64,000 nt of DNA. Source: Bacteroidales bacterium UBA3653 (GTDB lineage Bacteria > Bacteroidota > Bacteroidia > Bacteroidales > Paludibacteraceae). How positions within the stretch are numbered: position 1 is the stretch's first letter; each line of letters begins with the position of its first letter. Positions 1-63,943 of this stretch are shown one piece after another. The position numbers were made by a program, and so were the translations under genes. The notes beneath the pieces are model-generated. The model saw nothing but the letters and a program-made list of their open reading frames with translations, did no database searches and was not told the DNA's origin. Location of the stretch: assembly GCA_002373505.1 (NCBI GenBank), contig DFKE01000016.1, positions 21,472 through 85,471 of the forward strand, in the 5' to 3' direction.

Positions 1-510
1 TACGACGGCGAGAAGATTGCATGGGCGGTTCCATCGCTCGGATACATTCTCGGAGACGAAGGATCGGCGGCGGTACTGGGCAAGAGACTTGTAGGTGACC
101 TGTTGAAGAATCAGTTGGGCGACGACCTTAAGGAGGCTTTCTTCAAGGAATATGAGACCTCTATAGCGGATATCATCGAGAAAGTATATCGCCAACCCTT
201 CCCTAACCGCTTCCTGGCTAAGCTGTCCCGCTTCTGCGCCGATCACATAGACGACCCGCGCATCCGTGCACTCGTCTATGACCATTTTGTACAGTTCATC
301 CGGCGTAACCTGAAGCAGTATTTCGAGCCGTCAGCCATCAGCCATCAGCATTCAAAGGTGGGTTTTGTGGGGTCTATCGCCTACTACTACCGCCCGATTC
401 TGGAGGAAGCGATGGCGGCGGAAGGCATACAGGTCGGCACGATCCTGCAGGATCCTGTAGAGGGACTCAAAGAGTACCATAAATCCGCCGTCGTACCCAC
501 AACGGAATAA
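1..510 (+). CDS. BadF/BadG/BcrA/BcrD-type ATPase (N-acetylglucosamine-kinase-like), C-terminal part; 5' end lies outside the window
   Basis: Frame 1 is open from base 1 (YDGEKIAWAVPSLGYILGDEGSAAVLGKRL...) and joins track ORF 103..510. GDEGS motif of ASKHA sugar-kinase-like proteins. TAA at 508. Confidence 0.6.
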   Translation, partial: YDGEKIAWAVPSLGYILGDEGSAAVLGKRLVGDLLKNQLGDDLKEAFFKEYETSIADIIEKVYRQPFPNRFLAKLSRFCADHIDDPRIRALVYDHFVQFIRRNLKQYFEPSAISHQHSKVGFVGSIAYYYRPILEEAMAAEGIQVGTILQDPVEGLKEYHKSAVVPTTE

Positions 511-541
511 TTCGTAATTCGTAATTTTTAATTCGTAATTT
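509..541. repeat. heptamer word array, AATTCGT family, intergenic
   Basis: aattcgtaattcgtaatttttaattcgtaatt. TAA at 508/515/522 covers all three frames. The next ATG is at 545. Confidence 0.9.
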
Positions 542-544
542 GAA

Positions 545-1936
545 ATGATCGATACATTTTATCTGCCGGGCAGAGTCTGCTCAACCGCTGCTATCCGTGA
601 GATAGCACAAAAAACCGCTGCTCCATACACCATGATCTGTCTCAAACCCGAAATCGAATGGGTCTATCTGGGACAGGAGCGAATGATCCAGGTGCTCCAA
701 ATGACCGGTGCTACCATGGTCTATGCGGACCGGTTTAATAAATTCAAAATTCAAAATTCAAAATTCAAAATTACGGAAGCGCCCGTCATCGACTACCAGC
801 TTGGTGCACTGCGGGACGACTTTGATTTCGGAGCTGTGCTCCTTTGGGACACCGCCAAACTCAAAGCGTTCGTTGCCGAGATGGACACCGAGTATGAATA
901 CGCCGGACTGTATGACCTGCGACTCCGCGCCAGCCAACTCTCAATTCTCAATTCTCAATTCTCAATTCTCCACATTCCCGAATATCTCTATTACGAGGTG
1001 GAGACCGACACCCGCAAGTCCGGCGAGAAACTCTTCGACTATGTCGATCCGCGCAACAGAGCGGTACAGATAGAGATGGAGGCGTGCGTCACGGTTCATC
1101 TCAAGCGCATCGGGGCGTACTTGCAACCGGACGAATACCAGCCTCTGCCGGAGGCGGGTGAGTTCCCGGTGACTGCCTCGGTCATCATTCCTTGTAAGAA
1201 CCGCGCCCGCACGATTGCCGACGCCGTACGCTCCGCGCTCTCGCAGAAAGTGCGTGCTCCCTACTCGTTCAACGTCATCGTCGTCGATGACAACTCCACC
1301 GACGGCACCGCGGAGATCCTTAACGAAATGGTAAATGGTAAATGTCCAAATGGTAAATTGATTGTCATTTCCCAGGACAAGACCTGGCACGCTATCGGCG
1401 GCAACTGGAACGTAGCGATCCACGATCCGCGTTGCGGCAAGTACGCTATCCAGCTCGACTCCGACGACACCTATTTTGACGAACACACCGTCCAGAAATT
1501 CATCGATACTTTTGAGATGGTAAATGGTAAATGTCAAAATGGTAAATGCCTTTACGGCATGGTGATCGGTACTTACCAACTCACCAACATGGCGGGCGAG
1601 ATCCTGCCTCCGGGCGTGATCGACCACCGCGAGTGGACAGACGAGAACGGCCGCAACAACGCCCTCCGCATCAACGGTCTGGGTGCTCCGCGCGGTTTCT
1701 ACGTACCGCTGCTCCGGACGATCAACTACCCTACCACCAAGTACGGCGAGGACTACGCTGTCGGACTTCGTATCAGCCGCAACTGGCGCATAGGACGCAT
1801 CTACGACGTACTCTATAACTGCCGCCGGTGGGAAGACAACTCCGATGCCAACTGCGACATAGTAGCCATGAACCGCAACAACTGGTACAAAGACCGGCTC
1901 CGTACATTCGAACTTCTGGCACGACTCCATCAATAA
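545..1936 (+). CDS. glycosyltransferase family 2 protein with N-terminal extension
   Basis: 463-aa ORF with GT-A motifs [24 protein letters not shown] and QLDSDD. Carries four in-frame word arrays. Confidence 0.75.
740..772. repeat. heptamer array AAATTCA x4, in-frame in the GT2 gene
   Basis: aaattcaaaattcaaaattcaaaattcaaaatt encodes [11 protein letters not shown]. Confidence 0.9.
939..971. repeat. heptamer array CTCAATT x4 (reverse complement of the GAGAATT family), in-frame in GT2
   Basis: ctcaattctcaattctcaattctcaattctc encodes [10 protein letters not shown]. Confidence 0.9.
1326..1360 (+). repeat. AAATGGTAAATG family (A), in-frame in GT2
   Basis: aaatggtaaatggtaaatgtccaaatggtaaattg encodes [10 protein letters not shown]. 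Confidence 0.9.
1517..1548 (+). repeat. family A, in-frame in GT2
   Basis: atggtaaatggtaaatgtcaaaatggtaaatg encodes [10 protein letters not shown]. Confidence 0.9.
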
Positions 1937-1960
1937 TTCGTAATTCGTAATTTGTAATTC
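1935..1960. repeat. AATTCGT family array, intergenic
   Basis: aattcgtaattcgtaatttgtaattc. It starts inside the TAA stop of the GT2 gene. Confidence 0.9.
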
Positions 1961-1963
1961 ACA

Positions 1964-3121
1964 TTGAACATCCGCGTAGGAATATTAACGGCTCCGAAAA
2001 TTGAGTTCGAGCAGCGGGAACACACGTTCGTCTTAAAGAACGTGCGTATTGGCATCGGCTTCCATTGGGACCGCCACGAGGATCAGGAGTTCGCCGGCAC
2101 GCTGGAGATAAAGTCTGTTCCTAACCCCGTTATGCAAGGGGGAAAGCCGTGGCAGGTAGCCATCAACACCATTGATCTGGAAGACTACCTCTGTTCCGTC
2201 ATCTCATCCGAGATGAACGCCGACAGCCCCATGGAGCTGCTCAAGGCGCATGCCGTCATCAGCCGCAGCTGGGCAATACGGGCTATTGCCAATAAGCCGC
2301 ATGCCCAAATGGTAAATGGCAAAATGGTAAATGACTTTGACCTTTGTGCAGACGACCATTGCCAGCGTTACGAAGGACTGCGACGGATGAACGAACGCGC
2401 CGTAGAAGCCGTCCGCGCCACTGCCGGGCAAGTACTGACAAATGAACAAATGGTAAATGGCAAAATGGTAAATGAAATCTGTGATTGCCGTTATCACAAA
2501 TGCTGCGGAGGCAGGACGGAGATCTGGAGCACCTGCTGGGAAGACATCGACGTTCCTTATATTCAGTCCGTCGAGTGCCCGTACTGCAACCCTAAACACA
2601 TAAAGGCTTTGAGTTCACATGGTGAACGGTCTTTCGACTTTCTACTTTCGACTTGTCTCAACGACTACGACCGGGAGACCACGGATTTCCATGACTGGCA
2701 GGTGATCTACACCGCCGAAGAGTTGAGCGACATCATCCGCTCCAAATCCGGTATTGACTTCGGCGAGATCATCGACCTCATTCCTCTCAAACGCGGTCCG
2801 TCGGGACGCATCTGCGAACTGAAGATCGTCGGCACCAAGCATACGGAGATCATCGGCAAGGAGTTGAAGATCCGTCTATGGCTGAGCCGCACCTGCCTCT
2901 ATAGTTCCTGGTTTGACATAGAGAAAAACACACCTGCCCCTTCAGGGGAAGGTCGGGAAGGGGCTTCGTCCTTCGTCCTTCGCGGTCATGGCTGGGGACA
3001 CGGAGCCGGGCTTTGCCAGATAGGCGCGGCTGTCATGGCGGCGGAAGGAAAGACATACGAAGAGATTCTGACCTACTACTACCCCAGCACCACACTAAAT
3101 GACCAAATAGTAAATGACTAA
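1964..3121 (+). CDS. SpoIID/LytB domain-containing protein
   Basis: 385-aa ORF with TTG start. HAVISRSWA and CADDHCQRYEG motifs of the SpoIID amidase-enhancer domain. Follows a GT2 gene, a pairing I recall from Bacteroidales genomes. Confidence 0.75.
   Translation: MNIRVGILTAPKIEFEQREHTFVLKNVRIGIGFHWDRHEDQEFAGTLEIKSVPNPVMQGGKPWQVAINTIDLEDYLCSVISSEMNADSPMELLKAHAVISRSWAIRAIANKPHAQMVNGKMVNDFDLCADDHCQRYEGLRRMNERAVEAVRATAGQVLTNEQMVNGKMVNEICDCRYHKCCGGRTEIWSTCWEDIDVPYIQSVECPYCNPKHIKALSSHGERSFDFLLSTCLNDYDRETTDFHDWQVIYTAEELSDIIRSKSGIDFGEIIDLIPLKRGPSGRICELKIVGTKHTEIIGKELKIRLWLSRTCLYSSWFDIEKNTPAPSGEGREGASSFVLRGHGWGHGAGLCQIGAAVMAAEGKTYEEILTYYYPSTTLNDQIVND
2307..2333 (+). repeat. family A, in-frame in SpoIID gene
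   Basis: aaatggtaaatggcaaaatggtaaatg encodes QMVNGKMVN. Confidence 0.9.
2448..2474 (+). repeat. family A, in-frame in SpoIID gene
   Basis: An identical 27-mer, aaatggtaaatggcaaaatggtaaatg. Confidence 0.9.
2631..2657 (-). repeat. GTCGAAAG family in reverse orientation, in-frame in SpoIID gene
   Basis: ctttcgactttctactttcgacttgtc encodes SFDFLLSTC. Confidence 0.8.
2933..2982 (-). repeat. GC-hairpin element (family P, inverted) plus CTTCGTC x2.5, in-frame in SpoIID gene
   Basis: cctgcccc-ttca-ggggaaggtcgggaaggggc then ttcgtccttcgtccttcg. Encodes PAPSGEGREGASSFVLR. Confidence 0.8.
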
Positions 3122-3147
3122 ATGGTAAATGACTAAATGGTAAATGA
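3096..3147 (+). repeat. family A array (15-nt super-period) spanning the SpoIID stop and the methyltransferase start
   Basis: taaatgaccaaatagtaaatgactaaatggtaaatgactaaatggtaaatga. Stop TAA is at 3119 and ATG at 3137. Confidence 0.9.
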
Positions 3148-4393
3148 TTTAGCCTTGCAGCGCGATAAATACAAACACCTCTCTGACGAAGAATGGCGTT
3201 GGTTCTTGCAGCAGGTAGAGGGGCGCGAACGGACGGCGGACAAACTGCCCACTTTCGCTGCCATCGAGGACTGGTGGTATCCGGTACGCCTGTCTTGTGA
3301 ACAGTGCTCCTCGGAACTCACCGCGCGCTACAAAGCACAGATCGTACTTGGCACTTGGTCAAATGGTACTTGTCTTGACCTCACCGGAGGCTACGGGGTT
3401 GATACTTATTTCCTGTCCGAACACTTTGCCCGCACCGACTACGTAGAGCAGAACGCCGAGCTGTGCCGCATCGCCGAGCATAACTTCGCACTTAGTCCAA
3501 AGTCGAAAGTCGAAAGACAAAAACTCTCTATTGCCGTCCATAACACCATCGCCGAGGATTTCCTTCTCTCCTCCCCCTGTGGGGAGGCCGGGTGGGGTTT
3601 AATCTTCCTTGACCCTGCTCGCCGGGACAGCCACGGAGGCAAGGTTTTCAAGTTGGCCGACTGCACGCCGAATGTAGTGGAGTTGTTACCTGCTCTCTTG
3701 GACCACCTTGCGCCGGACGGACGGATCATGCTCAAACTCTCGCCCATGATCGACATCACCCAGGCGCTCAAAGAGTTGTCTGCCGTCAGCGGTCAGCCGT
3801 CAGACCTCACATGGGATGTGTACATAGTAGCCGTCAAGAACGAGGTCAAAGAGGTCTTATTGTTGTCCCAATGCCTCAAAGCCCCGATAAATGACCATAT
3901 AGTAAATGGTAAAATGGTAAATGACCAAATAATCAAATGCATTGATCTCTCCCGCCCCGAACAGGCGTTCACTTTCACCCGCGAGGAAGAGCAAGCGGCG
4001 CAGCCGCAAATTGTAAATGGTACTTGGTCAAATGGTACTTGGATCTACGAGCCTAATGCCGCTATCCTCAAAGCCGGAGCGTACAAGTTAGTCGGAGAGC
4101 GGTTCGGTTTGCAGAAACTCGACCCGAACACCCACCTCTATATCTCCGACCGGCTTGTGGAGCATTTCCCCGGACGCGTCTGGCGCATAAATGATAAAAT
4201 GGTAAATGCCAAAATGGTAAATGGACAAATGGCGAATGTCCTCTGCCGCAACTATCCGCTTACGCCGGAGCAGCTGAAGAAAAAACTGCACCTCCGGGAT
4301 GGAGGCACAGCCTATGTCATTGGTTGCAGGGTGGCAGGCAAGCCCGTTGTGCTTTTAGCCGAGCGGGTGGAAGATGTCCATGCCGAAGGCTGA
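3137..4393 (+). CDS. class I SAM-dependent methyltransferase (THUMP-like C-terminal region)
   Basis: 418-aa ORF with LDLTGGYGVD (SAM motif I-like) and IFLDPARR. The ATG lies inside a word array, so the exact start is uncertain. Confidence 0.6.
   Translation: MVNDLALQRDKYKHLSDEEWRWFLQQVEGRERTADKLPTFAAIEDWWYPVRLSCEQCSSELTARYKAQIVLGTWSNGTCLDLTGGYGVDTYFLSEHFARTDYVEQNAELCRIAEHNFALSPKSKVERQKLSIAVHNTIAEDFLLSSPCGEAGWGLIFLDPARRDSHGGKVFKLADCTPNVVELLPALLDHLAPDGRIMLKLSPMIDITQALKELSAVSGQPSDLTWDVYIVAVKNEVKEVLLLSQCLKAPINDHIVNGKMVNDQIIKCIDLSRPEQAFTFTREEEQAAQPQIVNGTWSNGTWIYEPNAAILKAGAYKLVGERFGLQKLDPNTHLYISDRLVEHFPGRVWRINDKMVNAKMVNGQMANVLCRNYPLTPEQLKKKLHLRDGGTAYVIGCRVAGKPVVLLAERVEDVHAEG
3344..3374. repeat. 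GGTACTTGG family, in-frame in methyltransferase
   Basis: gtacttggcacttggtcaaatggtacttgtc encodes VLGTWSNGTC. Confidence 0.8.
3495..3521 (+). repeat. GTCGAAAG family, in-frame in methyltransferase
   Basis: gtccaaagtcgaaagtcgaaagacaaa encodes PKSKVERQK. Confidence 0.85.
3571..3598 (-). repeat. GC-hairpin element (family P, inverted), in-frame in methyltransferase
   Basis: ctcccc-ctgt-ggggaggccgggtgggg encodes SPCGEAGWG. Confidence 0.75.
3887..3939 (+). repeat. family A array, in-frame in methyltransferase
   Basis: ataaatgaccatatagtaaatggtaaaatggtaaatgaccaaataatcaaatg encodes INDHIVNGKMVNDQIIK. Confidence 0.9.
4008..4042 (+). repeat. family A word fused to the GGTACTTGG family, in-frame in methyltransferase
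   Basis: aaattgtaaatggtacttggtcaaatggtacttgg encodes IVNGTWSNGTW. Confidence 0.85.
4187..4238 (+). repeat. family A array, in-frame in methyltransferase
   Basis: ataaatgataaaatggtaaatgccaaaatggtaaatggacaaatggcgaatg encodes INDKMVNAKMVNGQMAN. Confidence 0.9.
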
Positions 4394-5200
4394 GGTGAAC
4401 GCGTCCGCTTTTTTCAGAGTTTCTGGAGTGTCCAGTTGCACGCCGCCGCAATGAGGTGACATCAGCAGAATGCGGTCGGAGAGGGCGAGCGCCAGATCCA
4501 GTTCATGCGTAGAGATCAGGATAGTCTTTCCCTGTTCGTGAGCCAGTCTCCGCAAAAGTCTCAGTATCATAATCCGGTGTGGCAGGTCGAGATGAGCGGT
4601 TGGTTCGTCCAGAAGGATAACCGGTGTCCGCTGCGCCAAGGCTTTAGCTATCAGTATGCGCTGTTTCTCTCCGTCGGAATGGCTGTTAAAGAAAGACCGT
4701 CCTATGGACTGTAGGACCGCTCCGCTGTCGTTCACTATAGCATCTTCAAACCCCACTTCGCGCAGACTTTCTTCGATGATCCGTTCGTCCTCTTTCGACA
4801 GCCCGTCCAGAAAAGAGGTATACGGATACCGTCCCATCGCCACGACGTCATGCACCGTCGTGTTCTCCAGCGAGAGCCGCTCCGTCAGAACAAGAGAGAC
4901 CGCGTTGCTGTTAGCCCGCCGCGCTGTTAGACCGGTTCCGCCTGTAAGACTATAAGTGCCGGACAAGGGAGGTTGGAGTCCGGCGAGGGTGCGGATGAGT
5001 GTGGACTTGCCGCAGCCGTTTGGACCGAGCATGCAGACCAACTCACCCTCATAGAGCGAGAAAGTAAGGTCCCGCTGAATAGTCTTTCTGCTTTCGACAG
5101 GCTCTGTCCCGTCACCGGTAACCCGTAACCCGTCACCCGTAACCCCTCTATCGGCATACCCGATGGACAGTTTATTCGTAGAAATAGAGACGTTGTACAC
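4355..5200 (-). CDS. ABC transporter ATP-binding protein (iron-chelate/cobalamin-importer-like)
   Basis: 281-aa ORF with Walker A GPNGCGKST, signature SDGEKQR and Walker B ILLDEPTAHLD. Confidence 0.8.
   Translation of the reverse strand: MYNVSISTNKLSIGYADRGVTGDGLRVTGDGTEPVESRKTIQRDLTFSLYEGELVCMLGPNGCGKSTLIRTLAGLQPPLSGTYSLTGGTGLTARRANSNAVSLVLTERLSLENTTVHDVVAMGRYPYTSFLDGLSKEDERIIEESLREVGFEDAIVNDSGAVLQSIGRSFFNSHSDGEKQRILIAKALAQRTPVILLDEPTAHLDLPHRIMILRLLRRLAHEQGKTILISTHELDLALALSDRILLMSPHCGGVQLDTPETLKKADAFTSAFGMDIFHPLG
5108..5146. repeat. heptamer array CCCGT(C/A)A x5, in-frame in the ABC ATPase gene (minus strand)
   Basis: cccgtcaccggtaacccgtaacccgtcacccgtaacccc. The coding strand gives GVTGDGLRVTGDG. 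Confidence 0.9.
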
Positions 5201-7127
5201 GGCGTGAAACGGAGGTTAGTATTTCGTATGTTATTGTTCCGAGTTTGTCGGCGAGTTCCTGCAGCGTCACATGCTCGCCGAAGATCTCGACGGGGTCTCC
5301 CGGTCTGGCGTCGGTGCCGGTGACGTCTATCATTGCCTGGTCCATGCACACATTGCCTACCACGGGGCACCGTTTGCCCCGGATATAGACCTCTCCGCCG
5401 TAGTTGGAGAAGCGGCGGTCGAAGCCGTCGGCATAGCCGATAGGTATGACGGCTATCACGCGGTCCTCGTCCAGTTTCGTATGGCGTCCGTAGCCGATCG
5501 TCTCACCGGCTTTGACGGTCTTAACGGAGAGGATCGTGGTCTCCAGGGAGCACACATTGCGGAGGCGTGCGCCGGCGAAGGAGAAACCGTACAGACCTAT
5601 ACCCAGACGGCACATGTCGAACTGGTAGTCCGTGAAGCGCTCTATACCTGCAGAGTTGAGGATATGCTTTAAGATAGACCGCCCTTCGGGCTGACAGAAC
5701 ACAGACCGCTCTGCTGACAGACCGGCTACGCCTGACAGACCCTCCTTCAACTCCTCCGCGCAGTCGTCGAAATAGCGTATCTGTTGGAGGGTGAAGTCGT
5801 CGAACTGCGCCTCGTCGCTGCCGGCGAGATGGGAGAAGACAGACGCTACGCGGACGGCTTTGGTCTGCTGCAGTTTGCCGATGAGCCAGGGTATGTCTTC
5901 TTTGTAGAAACCGAGACGGTGCATGCCGGAGTCAATCTTGATATGTATCGGCACGTTCTCCAGCCCTTTGGCTTCCGCGGCGGCGATAACGGTCTTGAGC
6001 GACTGGTGGGAATAGACGTTCGGTTCCAGGTTGTTCTCCAGAATCAGGTCCATCGCCGCCACTTCGGGATCCATGATGATGATGGGCAGCGTGATACCCG
6101 CCTTGCGTAACTCGACACCTTCGTCCGCCACCGCTACTGCCAGGTAATCAACTAATGTACAATTTGACGATGTACGATGTACGAAGGAGTCATTTGCTTT
6201 TTGCAAGGCACGGCTGACCTCGACGCTGCCGGCTCCGTAGGCGAAGGCTTTGACCATACAGGTCAGCTTCGTCTCCGGTTTGAGGAGCGACCGGAAATAG
6301 CGCACGTTGTCCACCAGCGCACTCAGGTTCACCTTAAGAACCGTCTCGTGCGTCTGGCGCAGGATCCGTTCGGCGATGACCTCTTCGTCGTAACCCAGCG
6401 CTCTCATGACGGCGGCGCAGGTGCGCACGTTCTGGTGGGTTGGGTCCTCGATGACCTGCTCGGAGTGGATGAACAGTTTCATCTTCTCCTCCCGTTTCTG
6501 CTCCAGCGACGAGAAGTTCTCGTCGTGCTCGTGTCCGATATAGGTGATCACGCCAATGGTAGGACGGATCATGGGCTCCAGCTTCTCCATCTCTCCGGGC
6601 TGGGAGATGCCTGCTTCGAAGATAGCCAATACCCCTCTCCCTTCTGCACTTCTGCACTTCTGGCCCGTGGCCCGTAACCCGTCACCCGTCACCCGTAACC
6701 CCTCTAGCCCCCAAACGCTCAGCGGCACTCCTATCTGTGAGTTATAGGACTTAGGCGAACGGATGATGTCGTAGTCGTCTTTGAGGAGCTGGTATAGCCA
6801 TTCCTTGACCACCGTCTTGCCGTTGGACCCTGTGATACCGATGACGGTACCTTTGAACTGCGCACGGACATACGCCGCCAGAGCCTGCAAAGCCGCTATG
6901 CTGTCGCCGGTGACGAATGCTCGCACTCCTTTTTCCCGCAACTCAGGGATGTATTTCGCGCCGTCGTCTTTGTCCGTCTTGATAGCAAAGAAGAGCGTGT
7001 GCTCCGCCTTTTCCTTGTCCTGCGCGAGCGTCCTGCTGTCGGTGAGCAGATATCGGATCTCGAGGTCATCCTCTCCTGTAACATCGGCAATAGCCCCTAT
7101 TGCCTTCCTGATTTCAGATAATTTCAT
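5172..7127 (-). CDS. alr: bifunctional Mur-ligase-like (MurF-type) / alanine racemase fusion protein
   Basis: Track ORF 5172..7202 trimmed to Met26 (ATG 7127..7125), because 7149-7180 is a canonical promoter. GITGSNGKT P-loop in the N-terminal half and MVKAFAYGAG PLP-lysine motif in the C-terminal half. Confidence 0.75.
   Translation of the reverse strand: MKLSEIRKAIGAIADVTGEDDLEIRYLLTDSRTLAQDKEKAEHTLFFAIKTDKDDGAKYIPELREKGVRAFVTGDSIAALQALAAYVRAQFKGTVIGITGSNGKTVVKEWLYQLLKDDYDIIRSPKSYNSQIGVPLSVWGLEGLRVTGDGLRATGQKCRSAEGRGVLAIFEAGISQPGEMEKLEPMIRPTIGVITYIGHEHDENFSSLEQKREEKMKLFIHSEQVIEDPTHQNVRTCAAVMRALGYDEEVIAERILRQTHETVLKVNLSALVDNVRYFRSLLKPETKLTCMVKAFAYGAGSVEVSRALQKANDSFVHRTSSNCTLVDYLAVAVADEGVELRKAGITLPIIIMDPEVAAMDLILENNLEPNVYSHQSLKTVIAAAEAKGLENVPIHIKIDSGMHRLGFYKEDIPWLIGKLQQTKAVRVASVFSHLAGSDEAQFDDFTLQQIRYFDDCAEELKEGLSGVAGLSAERSVFCQPEGRSILKHILNSAGIERFTDYQFDMCRLGIGLYGFSFAGARLRNVCSLETTILSVKTVKAGETIGYGRHTKLDEDRVIAVIPIGYADGFDRRFSNYGGEVYIRGKRCPVVGNVCMDQAMIDVTGTDARPGDPVEIFGEHVTLQELADKLGTITYEILTSVSRRVQRLYFYE
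5676..5741 (-). repeat. GGTCTGTCAG composite element, in-frame in alr fusion
   Basis: The plus strand carries ctgacagaac, ctgacagacc and ctgacagacc at 16-20-nt spacing. The coding strand encodes GLSAERSVFCQPEGRS. Confidence 0.85.
6155..6188. repeat. ATGTACGAAGG family, in-frame (antisense orientation) in alr fusion
   Basis: atgtacaatttgacgatgtacgatgtacgaagga. Confidence 0.85.
6632..6704. repeat. composite of a partial GC-hairpin word, CTTCTGCA x2.5 and CCCGTNA x5, in-frame in alr fusion
   Basis: cccctctcccttctgcacttctgcacttctggcccgtggcccgtaacccgtcacccgtcacccgtaacccctc. The coding strand gives GLRVTGDGLRATGQKCRSAEGRG. Confidence 0.85.
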
Positions 7128-7180: not shown

Positions 7181-7387
7181 AAAAAATACACTTTTTTGCC
7201 ATATTTATGTCTTCCTATATTAGTTTGGAGATTTTGCACCCAGCGCGGCGCAACACCCGGCTAACACGAACCGGATCATCATCCGCCGCGGACGGCTTTA
7301 CATCCGGACAGAAAATGCCCTGTACGACATCCTCGGAAACAAACAAAGACCCCTCACCGACGATTACGACTCAAAATAGACTCCGCA

Positions 7388-7431
7388 CCAAAGGATAACC
7401 CAAGGATTCCCCAAGGATAACCCAAGGATAG
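7388..7431. repeat. 11-nt-period array (CCCAAGGATAA x4), intergenic
   Basis: ccaaaggataacccaaggattccccaaggataacccaaggatag. Confidence 0.9.
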
Positions 7432-7455
7432 AAGCCTTTTTCTGCACTTTGGGCG

Positions 7456-7488
7456 CTTTTACTATATATACGTAGTATATATACTTTT
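7456..7488. repeat. conserved AT-palindrome block, copy 1
   Basis: cttttactatatatacGtagtatatatactttt, with 9-bp arms at 7463..7471 and 7475..7483. It differs from 16523..16555 at one base. Confidence 0.9.
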
Positions 7489-7558
7489 TGTTGTATAAAT
7501 ACTGTTTGCACAAACCGGATTTACCATCCAACGCAAAGCACTAAAGTTCTTTGCACGG

Positions 7559-7597
7559 ACAAAAATCGTCTCTCGGGGCGATTTTTGTCTTTTTTAT
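7559..7597 (+). terminator. intrinsic terminator with no annotated gene upstream
   Basis: 10-bp stem acaaaaatcg/cgatttttgt, 10-nt loop, then cttttttat. Confidence 0.6.
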
Positions 7598-7628
7598 TTG
7601 CATATATGCAAAAAAAGCAGTACCTTTG
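7597..7628 (+). promoter_or_regulatory. Bacteroidota-type promoter for dxs (TTTG -33 / TACCTTTG -7)
   Basis: TTTGcatatatgcaaaaaaagcagTACCTTTG with a 20-nt spacer, about 45 nt upstream of ATG 7674. Confidence 0.7.
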
Positions 7629-7673
7629 CGGCGTAAATTGCGTGAGTATGCGCTCACGTGAACGAAAACAAAG

Positions 7674-9662
7674 ATGAATTATCAGTATATCAATAAGATT
7701 GATTCGCCGGCGGATTTGAAGAAGATACCGCTTGAGGAACTGCCGGCGGTGTGTGCGGAGTTGAGACAGTTTATCATTGAGGCACTCAGCAAAAACCCGG
7801 GACACCTTGCTTCGTCATTAGGCGCCATAGAGATCACCGTGGCGCTGCATTATGTGTTCGACACGCCGGACGACAAACTGGTTTGGGATGTAGGGCACCA
7901 GGCTTACGCACATAAGATCCTGACCGGACGGCGCGACCGCTTCCATACCAACCGCCAGTTCAAGGGACTATCCCCCTTTACCAACCCCGCCGAGAGCGAA
8001 TATGACGCCTTCATCGCAGGACATGCCTCTAATAGCATCTCTGCGGCGCTGGGAATTGATATAGGAACAAACCTCACCCCGACCCTCTCCCGAGGAGAGG
8101 GAGGAAAGAAGCGCAACGTAGTAGCTATTATAGGGGATGGAGCGATGACGGGCGGACTGGCGTTCGAGGGGCTCAACAACACCTCGATGGACAAAAACAA
8201 CCTGCTCATTGTGCTCAACGACAACCACATGGCAATCGACCCGCTGAAGGGCGGATTTACCCAGTACCTGGTGGACCTGACGACAAGCGCTACGTACAAC
8301 AAATGGCGCTGGCGGTTCTACCAACTGGCTTCCAGACTCCACCTCGTGGACGAACGTAAGAGACGCGCCATGCTGCGCCGGAACAACAGCCTAAAAGCAG
8401 TGCTCAGCAAACAGCCAAGCAATATCTTTACCGGACTCAACATCCGCTATTTCGGTCCCACAGACGGACATGACGTGGTAGGACTGGTGCGGATCCTGAG
8501 CGAGATAAAGAACCACCGCGGCCCCAAGGTGCTGCATATCATCACCAAGAAAGGCAAAGGCTACGCGCCGGCGGAGAACGACCAGACCGTTTGGCATGCG
8601 CCGGGAGAGTTCAATGTCACTACAGGCGAACGGCAGAGTGACAAACTACAAATCGCAAACGACAAATCACAAACTCCCCCTCTATGGCAGGAGGTGTTCG
8701 GAGAGACGCTTCTGGAACTGGCGAAAAAGAACGGCCGGATAGTAGGAATCACGCCCGCTATGCCCAGCGGTTGCTCGATGAGCATTATGCAGAAAGAGCT
8801 GCCGGAGAGGGTGTTTGACGTGGGTATAGCAGAAGGACATGCCGTCACCTTCAGCGCCGGACTGGCGAAAGCAGGCATGCTGCCGTACTGCAACATCTAC
8901 TCCACTTTCCTACAACGGGCATACGACAACATCGTCCATGACGTGGCGCTGCAGAACCTGCATGTGGTGCTGTGTATCGACCGCGCCGGAATAGTAGGCA
9001 ACGACGGAGCAACCCACCACGGTTTGCTCGATCTGGCATACCTGCGGCCTATTCCGAACATGCAGATCTGCGCCCCGCGTACGGCGGAGGACCTGAAAGA
9101 GATGCTGGCCCTCGCCGAGAACTTGGAAGGACCGGTGGCCATCCGCTATCCGAGAGGAAGGACAAACCCCGCCCCAGCCCTCCCCACAAGGGAGGGAGTA
9201 AAGTACGGCAAAGGCGTGAAGCTGCGAGACGGAGAAGATATTGCCGTCCTCACTATCGGGGCGATAGGAAACACCATGGCGGAAGCGATAGAGTCTGTCA
9301 GTCCGAAGGACGGTCTGTCAGCAAAGCGGTCTGTCAGTGAAACGGTCTGTCAGTCCGAAGGACGGTCCGTGAGCTTTGCGCACTACGATATGCGGTGGCT
9401 CAAGCCTCTGGACGAGGAGATACTGCACGAAGTGGGTAAGAAATACAAGACCATCGTTACTGCCGAAGACGGTATGATTGCCGGAGGACTGGGAAGCGCC
9501 GTATTGGAATGGATGGCTGACCACGGCTATACGCCACGGGTGATCCGGCTCGGAGTGAACGATCAATTTGTAGAACACGGCTCTACCAAAGAGCTCTATC
9601 ATATGTTAAAACTTGACAAAGAAGGACTATGCGAATCGTTATTGCAGGTGCCGGTGAAGTAG
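7674..9662 (+). CDS. dxs: 1-deoxy-D-xylulose-5-phosphate synthase
   Basis: 662-aa ORF with GHQAYAHKILTGRR, IIGDGAMTGG (TPP motif) and RYPRG. Confidence 0.95.
   Translation: MNYQYINKIDSPADLKKIPLEELPAVCAELRQFIIEALSKNPGHLASSLGAIEITVALHYVFDTPDDKLVWDVGHQAYAHKILTGRRDRFHTNRQFKGLSPFTNPAESEYDAFIAGHASNSISAALGIDIGTNLTPTLSRGEGGKKRNVVAIIGDGAMTGGLAFEGLNNTSMDKNNLLIVLNDNHMAIDPLKGGFTQYLVDLTTSATYNKWRWRFYQLASRLHLVDERKRRAMLRRNNSLKAVLSKQPSNIFTGLNIRYFGPTDGHDVVGLVRILSEIKNHRGPKVLHIITKKGKGYAPAENDQTVWHAPGEFNVTTGERQSDKLQIANDKSQTPPLWQEVFGETLLELAKKNGRIVGITPAMPSGCSMSIMQKELPERVFDVGIAEGHAVTFSAGLAKAGMLPYCNIYSTFLQRAYDNIVHDVALQNLHVVLCIDRAGIVGNDGATHHGLLDLAYLRPIPNMQICAPRTAEDLKEMLALAENLEGPVAIRYPRGRTNPAPALPTREGVKYGKGVKLRDGEDIAVLTIGAIGNTMAEAIESVSPKDGLSAKRSVSETVCQSEGRSVSFAHYDMRWLKPLDEEILHEVGKKYKTIVTAEDGMIAGGLGSAVLEWMADHGYTPRVIRLGVNDQFVEHGSTKELYHMLKLDKEGLCESLLQVPVK
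8072..8108 (+). repeat. GC-hairpin element (family P), in-frame in dxs
   Basis: cctcaccccgaccctctcc-cgag-gagagggaggaaag encodes LTPTLSRGEGGK. Confidence 0.85.
8641..8675. repeat. heptamer array ACAAA(C/T)(T/C) x5, in-frame in dxs
   Basis: acaaactacaaatcgcaaacgacaaatcacaaact encodes DKLQIANDKSQT. Confidence 0.85.
9165..9203 (+). repeat. GC-hairpin element (family P, 39 nt), in-frame in dxs
   Basis: aaccccgccccagccctcc-ccacaa-gggagggagtaaag encodes NPAPALPTREGVK. Confidence 0.9.
9293..9368 (+). repeat. GGTCTGTCAG composite element, in-frame in dxs
   Basis: gtctgtcag x4 with spacers tccgaaggacg / caaagcg / tgaaacg / tccgaaggacg. Encodes GLSAKRSVSETVCQSEGRS. Confidence 0.9.
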
Positions 9663-13792: not shown

Positions 13793-13809
13793 ATTGTGAA
13801 TTGTGAATT
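13778..13809. repeat. heptamer array AATTGTG family spanning the SGNH stop and the MBOAT start
   Basis: aattgtgcattgtaaattgtgaattgtgaatt. TAA is at 13790 and GTG at 13803. Confidence 0.9.
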
Positions 13810-16452: not shown

Positions 16453-16497
16453 GCCATAGGATCACCATAGGATGACCATAGGATCACCATAGGATGA
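16453..16497. repeat. 11-nt-period array (CCATAGGAT(C/G)A x4), intergenic
   Basis: gccataggatcaccataggatgaccataggatcaccataggatga. Confidence 0.9.
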
Positions 16498-16522
16498 ATC
16501 GCCCATTTTGTCATTTTAGCTT

Positions 16523-16555
16523 CTTTTACTATATATACATAGTATATATACTTTT
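16523..16555. repeat. conserved AT-palindrome block, copy 2
   Basis: cttttactatatatacAtagtatatatactttt, with arms at 16530..16538 and 16542..16550. Confidence 0.9.
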
Positions 16556-16570
16556 GATTAGTTATTTTTA

Positions 16571-16601
16571 TTTGCATATATCAAAAAAAATAGTACCTTT
16601 G
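16571..16601 (+). promoter_or_regulatory. Bacteroidota-type promoter for the lipoprotein genes (TTTG / TACCTTTG)
   Basis: TTTGcatatatcaaaaaaaatagTACCTTTG with a 19-nt spacer. Nearly identical to the dxs promoter block. Confidence 0.7.
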
Positions 16602-50363: not shown

Positions 50364-50401
50364 CCCCTCCCCGACCCTCCCCTCAAGGGAGGGAGATAAA
50401 G
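50363..50401 (+). repeat. GC-hairpin element (family P, 39 nt), intergenic after mlaF
   Basis: acccctccccgaccctccc-ctcaa-gggagggagataaag. It starts on the last base of the TAA stop. Confidence 0.9.
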
Positions 50402-50423: not shown

Positions 50424-50759
50424 ATGAGAAAAGTATTATTGATGGCTTTTATAGCCATATTGGGAATGGGCGTCTATGCCCAGCAGCCGGCTAAAGTACC
50501 GGCTTACCGCGGCATGATCGAGCGCGTGCAGCCGAACGGGTACACGCTGCGCACCTTCCTGCGCGGAGACGAACACAAACACTGGATGATGACCGAAGAC
50601 GGATGGTTGATCCGCGAGAACAAAAAAGGATGGCTGAAATACGCCAAGGTGAACCGCAAAGGCGAGATTGTAACCAGTTGCCGAAAAGCCAAAAACGTAG
50701 AGGACCGGACCAAATGCCAGAAGAAATGGCTGGAGAAGCACGGAGTGAAGAGGAATTGA
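50424..50759 (+). CDS. small secreted protein homologous to the N-terminal pro-region of the two M6 proteases
   Basis: 111-aa ORF with a signal peptide. VPAYRGMIERVQPNGYTLRTFLRGDEHKHW aligns by eye with VPARRG...GDE(F/H)(Y/F)H of both proteases. Confidence 0.55.
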   Translation: MRKVLLMAFIAILGMGVYAQQPAKVPAYRGMIERVQPNGYTLRTFLRGDEHKHWMMTEDGWLIRENKKGWLKYAKVNRKGEIVTSCRKAKNVEDRTKCQKKWLEKHGVKRN

Positions 50760-50787
50760 TAATTGAGAATTGAGAATTGAGAATTGG
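50752..50787. repeat. GAGAATT family array containing the stop of the 111-aa gene
   Basis: ggaattgataattgagaattgagaattgagaattgg. TGA at 50757/50764/50771 covers all three frames. The next ATG is at 50789. Confidence 0.9.
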
Positions 50788-50788
50788 T

Positions 50789-52330
50789 ATGAAGAAAATT
50801 TTGAGCATAGTGATGCTATGCGCTGTCGCAGTGAGTGCGACGGCAGTGCCGGCACGCCGTGAGGGTATGATCCGGACTGATGCGAACGGAACAGAAAAAA
50901 TGGTGTTCCTTAACGGAGACGAGCATTTTCATTTTATCACGGATGCAGAAGGACGCTGGCTTGACGAAGAGACCTTGCTGCCGATAGCAGAAGAAGAGAA
51001 AACTGCGCGTATGGCGAAAGGACAACAGCGCGCCAAAGCCCGCCGTGCAAGGCAGGAAACGGGAGTGGACCGTCTGCTGGCACCGAAAGGGGCTGTTATT
51101 CTGGTCAGTTTCAAGGACCTGGATTTCAGCCAGTCCAATGAGGATATGACCCAATGGGCGATGGGAGAGACATACACCTATAACGGTGCTACGGGATCCA
51201 TCCACCAGTATTTCAACGACCAGAGTTGGGGAGAGTACGACATGGATATTGATGTCATTGGCCCTGTGACGGTTAGCAGGAACTACTCCTATTACGGTAG
51301 CAACGACTGGGGAGGGAATGACAACCACCCGGACGAACTGGTCAAAGAGGCGTGCCAGTTAGCCGCAAAACAAGGAGCCGATTTCAGCCAATACGACAAC
51401 AATGATGACGGAGAAGTGGACTGGGTGGTTATTCTCTATGCGGGTAAAGGCGAAGCGGACGGAGGAGCAAGCAACACGATATGGCCTCACCAATACGATC
51501 TGAGTTATACCGATATGTCCTTCAAGTTGGATGGCAAGACGATAGATCACTACTGCTGTCTCAACGAGATTGACGGACAAACAGGCGAACGGTGCGGTAT
51601 CGGTACTTTCTGCCATGAGTTCAGCCATGTGATGGGGTTGCCGGATTTCTATGCCACCGTAGAAGGCGCCACGCACCGCACGATGGTAGATTGGGACATC
51701 ATGGACTACGGGCCTTATAATAACGATGGTAACACGCCTCCCAACTATTCCGCCTACGAGCGGTGGTTCATGGGATGGATCACTCCGCGCGTGCTGACAG
51801 AGCCGGAAAACACCTTGTTAGGTCCGCTTCAAGAGACCAAACAATCCTTGCTGATGTGCAACGGAAACGCACATAATTTAGACGGCCTGAACCCGTTACC
51901 CAGAACATTCTATTTACTGGAAACCCGCGCACAGGAAGGATGGGACAAGTACCTCGCCGGCAAAGGGCTGATGATCACCAAGATCCAATATGATTCCGAT
52001 AAATGGTACAGCAACACTGTCAATAACACGTCCAGCAAATTAGGCGTGGACCTGATAGAAGCCAAAAAGAACACGTCGGCTTACTACAGCCGAGCCACCG
52101 ATCTTTTCCCTGCCGGAGCGAATTCATTCACCGGTTTTGCAGATCACGAGATTACGGACATCGAACTCTATGCGGATGGCTACATCGGATTCAAATACAA
52201 CGGCGGATGGCCGGAAGGGATTGAAGACGTACAAGGGAACGATGTACAATGTACAAAGGTATTGCGTGGCGGCAAGGTAGTTATTATCCGCGAGGGAAAG
52301 GAATACGATATTTTAGGTAATCGTTTATGA
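50789..52330 (+). CDS. M6-family zinc metalloprotease with T9SS-like C-terminal tail
   Basis: Track ORF 50777..52330 trimmed to ATG 50789 ([10 protein letters not shown]), because the TTG at 50777 lies inside a GAGAATT array. HEFSH at 51614..51628. C-terminus is [22 protein letters not shown]. Confidence 0.8.
52229..52259. repeat. ATGTAC(G/A)AAGG family variant, in-frame in the second M6 protease gene
   Basis: gtacaagggaacgatgtacaatgtacaaagg encodes [10 protein letters not shown], just before the C-terminal tail. Confidence 0.8.
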
Positions 52331-63325: not shown

Positions 63326-63330
63326 AAACC

Positions 63331-63360
63331 AACGATTTAACGGTTTAACAATTTAACGCG
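63331..63360. repeat. 8-nt-period array (CGATTTAA / CGGTTTAA / CAATTTAA), dnaJ-grpE spacer
   Basis: aacgatttaacggtttaacaatttaacgcg. Confidence 0.85.
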
Positions 63361-63363
63361 AAC

Positions 63364-63885
63364 TTATTCGCCAACCACTACTTTGGCAAAACGGATCACT
63401 TTCTCACCCATCTTGTAGCCTTTCTGGGTGCAGTCGATCACTTTGCCTTTCTTGTCCTCGCCGGCGGCAAAGGTAGTCACGGCTTCGTGTTCGTCGGTAT
63501 TGAAATCCGCGTTCTCCGTCTCCACGGCGTGGACGTCATGTTTGTCGAGGAAAGAGAGGAACTTCTGATAAATCAGTCGTACTCCCTCGTCGTCAGTAGC
63601 GGCTATCGCTCTTTCGAAATCGTCGATGAGCGGCAGCATTTCCGTGAATATCTTCTCTCCGGCTCTTTCTGTCAGTTCTATTTTCTCTTTGTTGGTACGC
63701 TTGCGGTAGTTGTCGAACTCTGCCATCATGCGCAGGTTCTTGTCCTCCATCTCTGCCAGTTGGCTTTCGGCCTTCGCTTTTTGGCTCTCGGCTTCTGCCA
63801 CTTGCTCCTCCAACTCATGCAGGCGCGCCTGCAACTTTTCTTGCTGTTCTTGCTGTTCTTCTTGTCTCTTGTCTTTTTTTGCCAT
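63364..63885 (-). CDS. grpE: nucleotide exchange factor GrpE
   Basis: Track ORF 63364..63984 trimmed to Met34 (ATG 63885..63883; MAKKDKRQEE...), because the upstream 33 codons translate a repeat element. Coiled-coil followed by the GrpE C-terminal domain. Confidence 0.85.
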   Translation of the reverse strand: MAKKDKRQEEQQEQQEKLQARLHELEEQVAEAESQKAKAESQLAEMEDKNLRMMAEFDNYRKRTNKEKIELTERAGEKIFTEMLPLIDDFERAIAATDDEGVRLIYQKFLSFLDKHDVHAVETENADFNTDEHEAVTTFAAGEDKKGKVIDCTQKGYKMGEKVIRFAKVVVGE

Positions 63886-63887
63886 AT

Positions 63888-63943
63888 CTTTGTACTTTAA
63901 TTTGTCCTTCGTACATCGTACATCGTTCCTTTGTACTTTAATT
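63888..63943. repeat. ATGTACGAAGG-family core flanked by a perfect 15-bp direct repeat
   Basis: ctttgtactttaatt [tgtccttcgtacatcgtacatcgttc] ctttgtactttaatt. The direct repeats are at 63888..63902 and 63929..63943. Confidence 0.9.

Follow-up and report, generated by a model that had tools for sequence, protein, structure and literature searches.

The 64,000-nucleotide stretch of Bacteroidales bacterium UBA3653 analysed here (GenBank assembly GCA_002373505.1, contig DFKE01000016.1, positions 21,472 to 85,471 of the forward strand; hereafter the window) raises the question of how about 50 tiny tandem arrays, most of them built from 7-nucleotide (nt) words, came to occupy the gene boundaries and the housekeeping genes of a member of the Paludibacteraceae. 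The reading that we favour, with modest confidence, is that these are heptanucleotide simple-sequence repeats of the kind known as long simple sequence repeats (LSSRs) or short tandemly repeated repetitive sequences (STRRs), driven by slippage, filtered by translation and additionally copied between sites. Our comparisons show that heptamer arrays slip by whole units and that translation filters which arrays survive, and they reveal at least three filler types that can stand in for one another, among them the heptamer arrays, a GC hairpin and a repeat of the motif GGTCTGTCAG. Heptanucleotide repeats have been known since 1990, and in 2007 they were recognised as the most frequent long simple-sequence repeats of many bacteria.

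Heptamer arrays of the window

Tandem Repeats Finder (TRF) returned 91 rows for the window, representing about 50 distinct arrays. A period of 7 is found in most of them, with 8, 14, 15, 11 and a few further periods making up the remainder, and the period-7 arrays comprise 2.1-5.7 copies (2-6 units) with 71-100% matches over a total length of 19-54 nt. At lag 7 there are 188 exact 7-mer self-matches and at each of lags 1-6 only 3-12, with secondary peaks at lag 14 (81), lag 15 (87), lag 21 (53), lag 11 (62) and lag 22 (56), and a strict scoring scan found 18 period-7 arrays in the window and none in each of 20 triplet-preserving shuffles. The arrays thus have the defining features of simple-sequence repeats, namely short units (5-11 nt) joined head to tail and an excess over composition. 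Together with the small elements described below, the ~50 arrays amount to ~3% of the window; arrays cover 17% of its non-coding nt and 2% of its coding nt, and 1242 of the 1916 array nt are coding.

Because the source is metagenome-assembled sequence of an uncultured organism, the arrays could in principle have arisen through assembly, binning or synthesis. Three loci in ENA and JGI are nevertheless 100% identical to the window over 20.7, 11.2 and 10.5 kb (the ENA record names carry BioSamples SAMN02144230 and SAMN02144231), which rules out an assembly artefact, and the exact window DapB protein is found on 14 contigs from independent assemblies (ENA, JGI, NCBI, Logan), the NCBI and Logan contigs deriving from other samples. 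Single arrays are moreover shorter than one sequencing read, reading frames remain intact through them, and the lag-7 excess recurs in most of 80 species-level metagenome-assembled genomes (MAGs) from various studies and host animals. An artefact is effectively refuted as an explanation, and we attach next to no probability to it.

An earlier note on this DNA, made from its letters, had placed arrays in a GT2 glycosyltransferase gene (four), SpoIID (four), a methyltransferase (six), alr, dxs, coaE, dapB, ribE, WbqC, DUF4861 and an M6 protease, and all of these are real and lie where it put them. Its rule that a word consists of an A/T-rich tetramer plus a trimer describes part of the repertoire, but GC-rich words such as CCCGTAA, GTCAGCC and AGCCATC also occur. 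Pfam confirmed the host genes as GT2, SpoIID, a PG_1098/THUMP-like methyltransferase, an ABC ATPase, a Mur-ligase/alanine-racemase (alr) fusion, DXS, CoaE, DapB, WbqC, riboflavin synthase (RibE), DUF4861 and M6 peptidase, and every host open reading frame (ORF) is open across its arrays. Rfam covariance models gave no match at the gathering threshold anywhere in the window, and a known RNA family was ruled out on this basis. The arrays are listed here by window position.

326-349, plus strand: AGCCATC x3.4, in frame in ORF 103-510
508-540, plus strand: TAATTCG x4.7; its first unit is the TAA stop of ORF 103-510, and it fills the spacer to the GT2 ATG at 545
740-772, plus strand: AAATTCA x4.7, 33 nt, perfect; GT2 amino acids 66-76, hypervariable island 1
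935-970, plus strand: CAATTCT x5.1; GT2 amino acids 131-142, a site empty in some homologues
1326-1358, plus strand: AAATGGT in units of 7-7-8-7 nt; GT2 amino acids 261-271, hypervariable island 3
1517-1548, plus strand: AAATGGT in units of 7-7-8-7 nt; GT2 amino acids 325-335, hypervariable island 4
1934-1960, plus strand: TAATTCG x3.9, supplying the GT2 stop codon and filling the GT2-SpoIID junction
2307-2333, plus strand: AAATGGT/AAATGGCA cassette in SpoIID, peptide QMVNGKM
2448-2474, plus strand: second AAATGGT/AAATGGCA array in SpoIID, the same 27 nt as 2307-2333
2631-2654, plus strand: CTTTCGA x3.4 in SpoIID, the antisense orientation of the common word AAAGTCG
2940-2982, plus strand: GC hairpin (CCCCTTCAGGGGAAGG..., 2940-2963) followed by CTTCGTC x2.7, in SpoIID
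3094-3147, plus strand: 15-mer TAAATGAC+TAAATGG x3.5, holding the SpoIID stop (3119-3121) and the methyltransferase ATG (3137)
3338-3372, plus strand: GTACTTG/GTCAAATG-type array in the methyltransferase
3494-3516, plus strand: AGTCGAA x3.3 (word AAAGTCG) in the methyltransferase
3778-3803, plus strand: GTCAGCC x3.7 in the methyltransferase
3888-3931, plus strand: 15-mer AAATGAC/AAATGGT array in the methyltransferase
4007-4041, plus strand: AAATTGT/AAATGGT/ACTTGGT array in the methyltransferase
4188-4229, plus strand: 15-mer AAATGAT/AAATGGT array in the methyltransferase
5108-5145, minus strand: CCCGTAA x5.4 as read on the plus strand (sense GGGTTAC), near the N-terminus of the ABC ATPase, peptide GVTGDGLRVTG
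6155-6184, minus strand: ATGTACG array within a 36-nt insertion in the alr-Mur ligase fusion
6641-6701, minus strand: CTTCTGCA x2.8 followed by CCCGTAA x4.4, in the alr fusion
8641-8674, plus strand: 14-mer ACAAACGACAAATC x2.4 in dxs, peptide DKLQIANDKSQT, in hypervariable columns
9293-9367, plus strand: GGTCTGTCAG every 16-20 nt (filler family C) in dxs
13778-13809, plus strand: AATTGTG x4.6, holding the GDSL gene's stop codon and, with GTG 13803, the earliest in-frame start of the MBOAT ORF
16106-16138, plus strand: 14-mer AAAAATAACGAATT x2.4 in coaE, peptide KKIRIKNNELKI
17810-17844, plus strand: AAATTAA/AAATGAAG array at dapB hot spot 1, peptide LNEELKIKNEELS
20301-20330, plus strand: AGTCRAA x4.3 in WbqC, peptide VESQKSKLKS
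21435-21459, plus strand: AATTGAG x3.6, the TGA stop of a class IV aminotransferase and part of the junction
23035-23056, plus strand: GTCGAAA x3.1, ending 2 nt before the ATG at 23059
23644-23671, plus strand: 8-mer GTTAAGAT x3.5, a junction filler running into the ATG at 23666
24331-24364, plus strand: 15-mer AAATGAA/AAATGGT array spanning a junction into the start of the next gene
25805-25844, plus strand: AAATTAA x5.4, containing a stop codon and forming the whole spacer before the ribE ATG
26000-26035, plus strand: AAATGACC/AAATGGT/AAATGGCG/AAATGGT cassette in ribE, peptide TNDQMVNGEMVNV
26480-26519, plus strand: 15-mer AAATGAA/AAATTGT array, ribE stop and spacer
28463-28503, plus strand: 15-mer AAATGAT/AAATGGT array, stop codon and spacer
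29981-30007, plus strand: ACACATT x3.1, stop codon and part of the junction
32308-32337, plus strand: AGTCAAA/AGTCGAA x4, directly 3' of the GH28 stop and in the annotated N-terminus of DUF4861
33232-33260, plus strand: TCACAAA x4.1, perfect, in DUF4861, peptide SQITNHKSQ
40209-40244, minus strand: CCATTTA x5 as read on the plus strand (sense TAAATGG), just 3' of the stop of gene 40254-40718
50753-50786, plus strand: GAATTGA x4.9, directly before the in-frame ATG at 50789-50791 of the M6 peptidase ORF, whose first possible start, TTG 50777, lies inside the array
63331-63358, minus strand: 8-mer AACGATTT x3.5, filling the junction between two minus-strand genes

Array density is uneven along the window, with about one array per 0.8 kb in 1-33000 and only ~6 arrays in 41000-64000, although both halves consist of ordinary operons. 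Different constraint, expression or recent acquisition could account for this.

Unit steps and same-site replacement between strains

The window was aligned with haplotypes L170 (which matches L090), L171 and L173, all 91-92% identical to it over 1-7.2 kb, with L010 (94.7% over 17.7-28.3 kb) and with L173 over a further segment (95.9% over 7.3-11.9 kb). In these three comparisons, at 91-96% identity, not one of the 24 indel blocks lies outside the arrays and two other small element types. The 20 blocks that lie within ORFs are without exception multiples of 3 (15 nt and other multiples up to 90), and the four junction blocks measure -7, -7, -7 and -4 nt. Junction steps of 7 nt are found at 1939, 21449 and 23052 and steps of one 15-nt unit at 325, 3104 and 6646: the 1934-1960 array is 7 nt shorter in L171 and L173, the 21435-21459 array has one unit fewer (-7 nt) in L010, the 15-mer array at 3094-3147 differs between strains by +15 and +30 nt, and the 6641-6701 site is 15 nt longer in L170 and carries a GC hairpin instead in L171. 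A further difference is seen at 3888-3931, where the array of L170 is 24 nt longer. No frame-breaking step within an ORF was seen among the assembled genomes compared. Phase variation was ruled out, since no in-ORF step departs from a multiple of 3 and the host genes encode housekeeping enzymes (dapB, dxs, ribE, coaE, alr). The earlier note had held that these are not ordinary coding microsatellites, which stands in so far as they are not phase-variable, but the arrays do slip, by 7 nt at junctions and by multiples of 3 in ORFs; it had also proposed to look among strains for polymorphism in copy number and in presence, and both were found.

What was least anticipated is that many of the indel blocks are not changes in copy number at all, being replacements of one filler by an unrelated word or by a GC hairpin. 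The 326-349 site carries a 15-mer AAATGAA/AAATGGT array of 2.5-5 units in L170, L171 and L173 rather than AGCCATC; at 935-970 the CAATTCT array of the window faces an AAATCGT array in L173; an AAATCGT array occupies the 2307-2333 site in L171; and the 2940-2982 site holds a CAATTCT array, 21 nt shorter, in L170 and L173. At 3778-3803, L171 and L173 have an unrelated segment, 51 nt longer, that contains a hairpin. A GC hairpin element stands instead of the 4007-4041 array in L170 and L173, a hairpin-type element is found at 4188-4229 in L171, and L171 and L173 have CTTTCGA at 5108-5145, while the 36-nt insertion that holds the 6155-6184 array is missing from L170 and L173. The same behaviour is seen downstream, where L010 carries GTACGAT/GTACAAA, 7 nt shorter, at 23035-23056 and an AAATGGT/AAATGAA array as against AAATTAA at 25805-25844, and where the precise place of the WbqC array (20301-20330) is taken by GATGTAC x4 in strain L005 (94.5% nt identity). 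Interchangeable filler types and same-site swapping between close relatives had been missed by the earlier note.

The second filler type (family B) is a 40-nt GC hairpin with the consensus AAACCYCNCCCCGACCCTCCCYTCAAGGGAGGGAGTAAAG, which has six conserved copies in the window, three of them in frame in genes, and related hairpins besides.

8069-8108, plus strand: 40-nt GC hairpin, in frame in dxs
9164-9203, 46510-46549, 46622-46661, 48703-48742 and 50361-50400: the other 40-nt copies
3570-3587, 16323-16341 and 2940-2963: related hairpins

Hairpins lie in frame inside dxs (twice), the GDSL lipase gene, coaE and the methyltransferase, always with the C-rich arm first on the sense strand, and they replace heptamer arrays at the same sites in related strains; the 40-nt element resembles a miniature Rickettsia palindromic element (RPE) or repetitive extragenic palindromic (REP) element. 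In the third family, GGTCTGTCAG recurs every 16-20 nt together with short GTCC-GAA-GGAC hairpins and encodes SVS..CQ..-type peptides. It is present at 9293-9367 (dxs) and, antisense, at 5697-5740 (alr fusion), at the aminotransferase hot spot of L010 and L018, and in CoaE and DapB of other species.

That aminotransferase hot spot, in the class IV enzyme, is empty in many species and holds at least eight different fillers in others, namely AAAGTCG, GTCAGCC, AAAGTTG, AAGTACA, GGGTTAC, the GC hairpin, a ACAGACCGCT...CTGACAG element and one more, with common junction sequences in the filled alleles. Filler alleles are mosaic among the four haplotypes, so that part of the filler diversity is probably standing polymorphism shuffled by homologous recombination. 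The GT2 protein (545-1936) is 95-99% identical between haplotypes, and the aligned 7-kb region only ~91-92% identical at the nt level. On this sequence evidence, GT2 identity and the mosaic filler alleles indicate frequent homologous recombination in the population.

Junctions and reading frames

To place the words relative to genes, a census was made of the window and of 80 loci with related DapB genes, one genome per species (1.49 Mb in all), in which gene calls for the related loci are crude, being longest ORFs picked greedily. It comprises 345 strict heptamer arrays, 178 in ORFs, 119 on ORF edges and 48 intergenic, so that units that are not multiples of 3 are not largely confined to non-coding DNA. 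The sense words number 118, in keeping with the view of the earlier note that many words share one architecture and do not represent one mobile sequence.

Arrays make up most operon junctions and supply both stop and start codons. Thirteen short co-directional junctions of the window (spacers of 7-53 nt) consist largely of a 7-, 8-, 10- or 15-nt array, and three further spacers of 114-221 nt contain a 10- or 11-nt array; at the short junctions the upstream stop codon usually lies inside the array, whose end often falls 0-10 nt before the next start. The junction words are A/T/G-rich, carry TAA or TGA in the sense strand and often provide the next ATG, and in junction and edge words the sense strand contains only 4-8% cytosine. 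Sense-strand stops are present in 75% of intergenic words and in 92% of edge words, the latter figure involving some circularity, since any ORF that reads into a stop-containing array terminates there, as compared with 38% in the antisense strand. At 40209-40244 word orientation follows that of gene 40254-40718, and in minus-strand genes that Pfam confirmed, the words are reversed along with the gene. An apparent signal in minus-strand ORFs for a strand bias that follows replication rather than transcription stems mostly from spurious antisense ORFs of the crude gene caller.

Such regularity could be taken to mean that the arrays are primarily functional, serving at junctions as three-frame stops combined with A-rich leaders or sites for RNA-binding proteins that promote re-initiation, and within ORFs as flexible linkers. 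Bacteroidota are a phylum without Shine-Dalgarno pairing. The composition, stop content and position of the junction arrays all speak for a function, as do two precedents, the TAACTGA repeats that lie just upstream of starts and for which binding by S1, Csp or CsrA-type proteins has been proposed (PMC4679880), and the GGGAATC repeats found within 50 bp of starts or stops of co-oriented ORFs (PMC4692102). Yet neither the junction word nor its copy number is conserved even between strains that are 91-96% identical, and swapped junction words mean that any junction function could only be compositional. The same junctions and loops are array-free in many related species, the same words occur inside ORFs, and the orientation bias in ORFs is explained by stop avoidance and hydropathy, as set out below. 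A compositional junction role, as three-frame stop plus unstructured A-rich leader, is possible on this analysis; a primary cis-regulatory function is less likely, and we regard the functional explanation as a whole as improbable.

Inside ORFs, alignments of 23-80 orthologues per protein place the array-coded peptides in gapped or hypervariable columns between near-invariant blocks in DXS (two sites), CoaE, MBOAT and DapB. At the dxs 9293-9367 site 16 of 23 orthologues are gapped and the others carry heptamer-coded peptides; at coaE 16106-16138 the gapped orthologues number 17 of 34, and strain L004 is without the array; at dapB hot spot 1 they number 58 of 80. An alignment of 42 GT2 homologues (81-98% identical) has four hypervariable islands, and each of the four GT2 arrays falls on one of them; an AlphaFold2 model of GT2 built from these homologues reached a mean predicted local distance difference test (pLDDT) score of 43, too poor for mapping. 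RibE provides the most clear-cut case, a clean 8-codon insertion. The short form, VVKIEG-DLYTV, is found in most of the 59 orthologues aligned, and the window and about a dozen species have VVKTNDQMVNGEMVNVYTV, a net gain of 24 nt. Aligned with sequences in the PDB, where RibE is clear and DapB ambiguous, the RibE island faces an 8-residue gap in the solved riboflavin synthase 9ryj and a 3-residue gap in 4e0f. The arrays are thus inserted in frame into unrelated conserved genes and missing from orthologues, and they are lineage-specific insertions at tolerant hot spots. The lineage-specific gap columns that the earlier note had anticipated are borne out by these alignments, and its refuting case, the same islands in distant orthologues, did not materialise, since distant orthologues and solved structures are without the RibE island.

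The words that survive inside genes bear the imprint of translation. Since 7 and 3 have no common factor, three perfect heptamer copies are read in all three phases, and a stop-containing word therefore closes every frame. A sense-strand stop is found in 24% of in-ORF words, and the arrays concerned are short or imperfect. AAATGGT, which contains TAA, occurs within genes only as a 7+8 = 15-nt unit (AAATGGT + AAATGRNN) whose single open frame reads MVNGK, and this restriction explains both the 15-nt super-period and the MVNGKMVN islands. Most of the 121 in-ORF arrays with stop-free words encode hydrophilic S/K/Q/R/E-rich peptides, the in-ORF sense peptides having a mean Kyte-Doolittle hydropathy of -0.79; read in antisense, 26 of 48 in-ORF words contain a stop and the other 22 are hydrophobic (mean +0.78). 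Stop avoidance and hydropathy together account for the in-ORF orientation bias, which for AAAGTCG amounts to 33 sense arrays against 1 antisense. The record of insertions shows that peptides of 8-30 residues can be inserted and replaced continuously in DapB, DXS, RibE, CoaE and alanine racemase, a tolerance in central enzymes that is relevant to protein evolution and loop engineering. In rumen MAGs, moreover, the arrays displace the calls of starts and stops, exaggerate the variation in protein length and give rise to most of the indels between strains.

Distribution, probable spread between sites and known repeat classes

The heptamer trait is widespread in rumen and gut Paludibacteraceae and largely family-specific. 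Nearly all of the 80 DapB loci are labelled Paludibacteraceae or uncultured Bacteroidales, the host animals in their titles include cattle, goat, sheep, deer, yak, buffalo, pig and horse, and the best DapB match among these related species has 93% amino acid identity. Lag-7 matches per 10 kb reach 29 in the window, 0-74 (most 10-60) in the 80 related species and 4-99 in related rumen metagenome contigs, as compared with mostly 0-5 in distant Bacteroidales (~43% SpoIID identity, many of them human-gut contigs); the check on lag-7 periodicity that the earlier note had suggested thus places the window far above both shuffles and distant Bacteroidales. Repeat load is a genome-level trait that differs between species, with a wide spread (for example L042, L030 and L081 as against L082, L012 and L011). 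Around DapB, the median number of lag-7 matches per 10 kb is 9.3 where the protein is without insertions and 25.5 where it is long, and DapB length correlates with regional lag-7 load (Spearman rho 0.41, p = 3e-4). This lineage constitutes an extreme natural experiment, in which dozens of related species have very different repeat loads and hundreds of orthologous sites can be seen empty, expanded or swapped, with selection legible through frame, stops and hydropathy and the generator testable by comparative genomics and population sequencing.

Among the words, AAAGTCG accounts for 33 arrays in 20 species, AAAAATT for 30 arrays, AATTGAG for 17 and AAGATTG for 12. Viral contigs with AAAGTCG and AATTGAG arrays number 37 and 45, against 22 and 3 for scrambled controls; heptamer arrays are thus widespread at a low level beyond Paludibacteraceae, and word specificity is not established. 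Several viral contigs, L238 (IMG/VR 3300029305_011491), L229, L248 and L240, contain many AATTGAG/AATGGAG or AAATGCA arrays at unrelated GC content, often as inverted pairs around short hairpins, and in L238 several arrays lie directly upstream of an opposite-strand GGAGG-ATG gene start. Phages may have heptamer-array systems of their own.

Words are shared within genomes far more often than expected, with 89 same-word array pairs against 35 +/- 6 and none of 2000 permutations reaching 89; the sharing extends to 8.4% of within-genome array pairs as compared with 3.2% between genomes. The AAATG 15-mer family occupies at least 12 sites in the window, and the 43-nt SpoIID stretch 2432-2474 matches the RibE cassette at 91% identity. 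Comparison of empty with filled sites at ribE and the aminotransferase gene revealed no target-site duplication (TSD), terminal inverted repeats (TIRs) or conserved ends, the difference being a patch replacement of local sequence. Arrays with the same word have unrelated flanks, and no transposase, reverse transcriptase or integrase gene was found in the 64-kb window. A transposon-like insertion was ruled out by the lack of TSD, TIRs and shared flanks and by the lack of a transposase or reverse transcriptase in the window.

These observations also bear on the proposal that heptamer arrays, GC hairpins and GGTCTGTCAG repeats are ultra-small non-autonomous mobile cassettes of ~25-60 nt, which a dedicated enzyme would copy into preferred sites or exchange there, slippage being secondary. 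Within-genome word sharing at 2.5 times the permutation expectation, near-identical imperfect cassettes in genes as unrelated as RibE and SpoIID, and the conservation of the six 40-nt hairpin copies are all in its favour, and so are the variety of fillers with common junctions at the aminotransferase site, whole-cassette replacement between strains that are 91-96% identical, the clustering of in-ORF array lengths at ~30-32 nt and the fact that filler load is a genome-level trait. What makes this explanation unlikely in our view, if still a possible one, is that it would have to do without TSD, TIRs or conserved ends and with replaced local sequence in place of a clean insertion, that 118 words far exceed the yield of a few element families, that unit-step changes in copy number are typical of slippage, and that the window encodes none of the enzymes named above. 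With a similarly low probability, a mechanism of this lineage might write and overwrite very short cassettes (heptamer or 15-mer arrays, the 40-nt GC hairpin and GGTCTGTCAG repeats) at defined sites in essential genes and operon junctions, as a new class of ultra-small insertional element or as a form of templated repair. If true, this would amount to an active cassette mechanism in which interchangeable fillers are traded among strains by recombination, with no target duplication.

Returning to slippage-driven simple-sequence repeats, which we favour, the account is as follows. Heptamer repeats, with derived 8-, 14- and 15-nt units, would have multiplied to an exceptional extent within one family-level lineage of uncultured rumen and gut Paludibacteraceae, the generator probably being replication slippage with a preference for 7-nt units. 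The arrays occupy almost every stretch of DNA that tolerates change, namely operon junctions, gene termini and variable enzyme columns. Selection removes frame-breaking steps inside ORFs, and stop-bearing junction words terminate the upstream gene in all three frames. Word sharing, shared imperfect cassettes and same-site swapping are the reasons for supposing that fillers are also copied between sites, perhaps by ectopic gene conversion or template switching between repeat tracts, which we would guess to be the simplest account; homologous recombination between strains would then shuffle the filler alleles.

Several points weigh against this scheme. Slippage alone does not account for sites at which a word has given way wholesale to an unrelated one, and swapped words together with a dispersed 40-nt hairpin mean that a second mechanism must be assumed, for which no enzyme and no donor-recipient pair was identified. 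Part of the replacement may be old polymorphism reshuffled by recombination rather than recent events, and the recurrence of words could be partly convergent, through peptide or RNA selection and mutation bias; AAAGTCG and AATTGAG arrays occur, after all, in unrelated viral contigs too. Slippage further predicts rare out-of-frame alleles, and none was seen in the assembled genomes that were compared. The stop content of edge arrays carries the circularity mentioned above, and the scheme does not account for the unit being 7 nt or for the concentration of the excess in this lineage.

We found no literature on repeats in Paludibacteraceae. Heptamers of the STRR kind were reportedly described in cyanobacteria by Mazel and colleagues in 1990; neither their words nor their host is matched here, where the words include AAAGTCG, AAAAATT, AATTGAG and AAATGGT and the host family is Paludibacteraceae. 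RPEs, reportedly described by Ogata and colleagues in 2000, are selfish, dispersed palindromic elements of 100-150 nt with a consensus. Like them, the present repeats are short, lineage-specific, in frame in many unrelated housekeeping genes and tolerated by the proteins, but they are direct heptamer repeats of 118 words, with only the 40-nt GC hairpin having a palindromic family consensus, and same-site swapping between filler types is not known to be described for RPEs. The small dispersed repeats (SDRs) of Nostoc, 21-27 nt long, reportedly lie in genes, in intergenic DNA and in heptameric repeats and are said (Elhai and colleagues, 2008) to be apparently mobile, with no target duplication and no known enzyme; the present repeats differ from SDRs in phylum and sequence. 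The terminal inverted repeats and TSD of miniature inverted-repeat transposable elements (MITEs) are lacking at ribE and the aminotransferase gene, and phase-variable contingency loci, in which unit steps switch genes (typically surface or host-interaction genes) through frameshifts or promoter spacing, are not matched by these arrays.

The described classes that come nearest are heptanucleotide repeats. According to two papers that relay Mrazek, Guo and Shah 2007 (PMC4679880, PMC4692102), no long simple-sequence repeats are more abundant in many bacteria than those with a heptanucleotide unit, for which an origin by polymerase slippage has been proposed, and LSSRs, with units of 5-11 nt, are mainly non-coding, those with units that are not multiples of 3 being rare in genes. 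The present arrays resemble LSSRs in their head-to-tail 7-nt units, their frequency above chance, their scatter through the genome, their lineage excess and a typical size of ~4 units; they differ in that about half of the strict arrays lie in housekeeping-enzyme ORFs, in comprising more than 100 words, in forming most operon junctions and in their host phylum, Bacteroidota not being among the repeat-rich taxa listed. TAACTGA repeats are found in marine Beggiatoaceae, some cyanobacteria and five Bacteroidetes including Paludibacter propionicigenes, which has only two sets (PMC4679880). They too are heptamer arrays of 2-6 copies a few nt upstream of starts, with forward stops and occasional copies in ORFs, but they consist essentially of one word, related heptamers are rarely repeated, they are mostly intergenic, and swapping of words at a site, as seen here, has not been reported for them. 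GGGAATC/GGGGAYT repeats, from Xanthomonas and Nostoc (PMC4692102), share with STRRs and with the present arrays the 7-nt tandem unit, a preference for ~4 units, variable copy number and location near starts and stops, yet their words are G-rich and G-quadruplex-capable and those found here are mostly A/T-rich and devoid of such potential. The contention of the earlier note that no described class fits was consequently mistaken, as LSSRs, STRRs, TAACTGA and GGGAATC repeats form a described heptanucleotide class. Those cases lie chiefly between genes, draw on a single word or a handful of them and are under-represented in genes. What appears undescribed is the conjunction of a vocabulary exceeding 100 words, operon junctions that are nearly saturated, arrays of which about half lie in frame within genes, and filler families that interchange at shared hot spots.

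A few other repeats of the window stand apart from the heptamer fillers. A promoter module of ~160-260 nt is repeated at 7387-7643 and 16454-16616, with a third copy of the promoter at 17609-17668; it comprises an 11-mer array x4 (ACCCAAGGATA or CCATAGGATSA), a segment of 55 nt that contains the palindrome TATATATACGTAGTATATATA, and a promoter of the Bacteroidetes type (TTTG ... TAccTTTG), and L010 has a 96% identical copy of 7370-7488 that is non-collinear with its other window matches. The 11-mer arrays, found also at 27132, 39780-39895 and 46701, have a common AGGAT core and lie in promoter-type spacers; they are probably regulator-binding repeats, separate from the heptamer fillers. Repeats at 12611-12661 and 23312-23370, with periods of 9 and 15/30 nt and ESLE/EEPVK-type peptides, fall outside the 7-nt lattice and are ordinary codon-periodic low-complexity linkers, at positions where orthologues likewise have variable acidic or proline-rich linkers. 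Two adjacent FKBP-type genes, 26727-27107 and 28089-28469, share segments of 83 and 247 nt at 77-82% identity and are a tandem gene duplication unconnected with the arrays.

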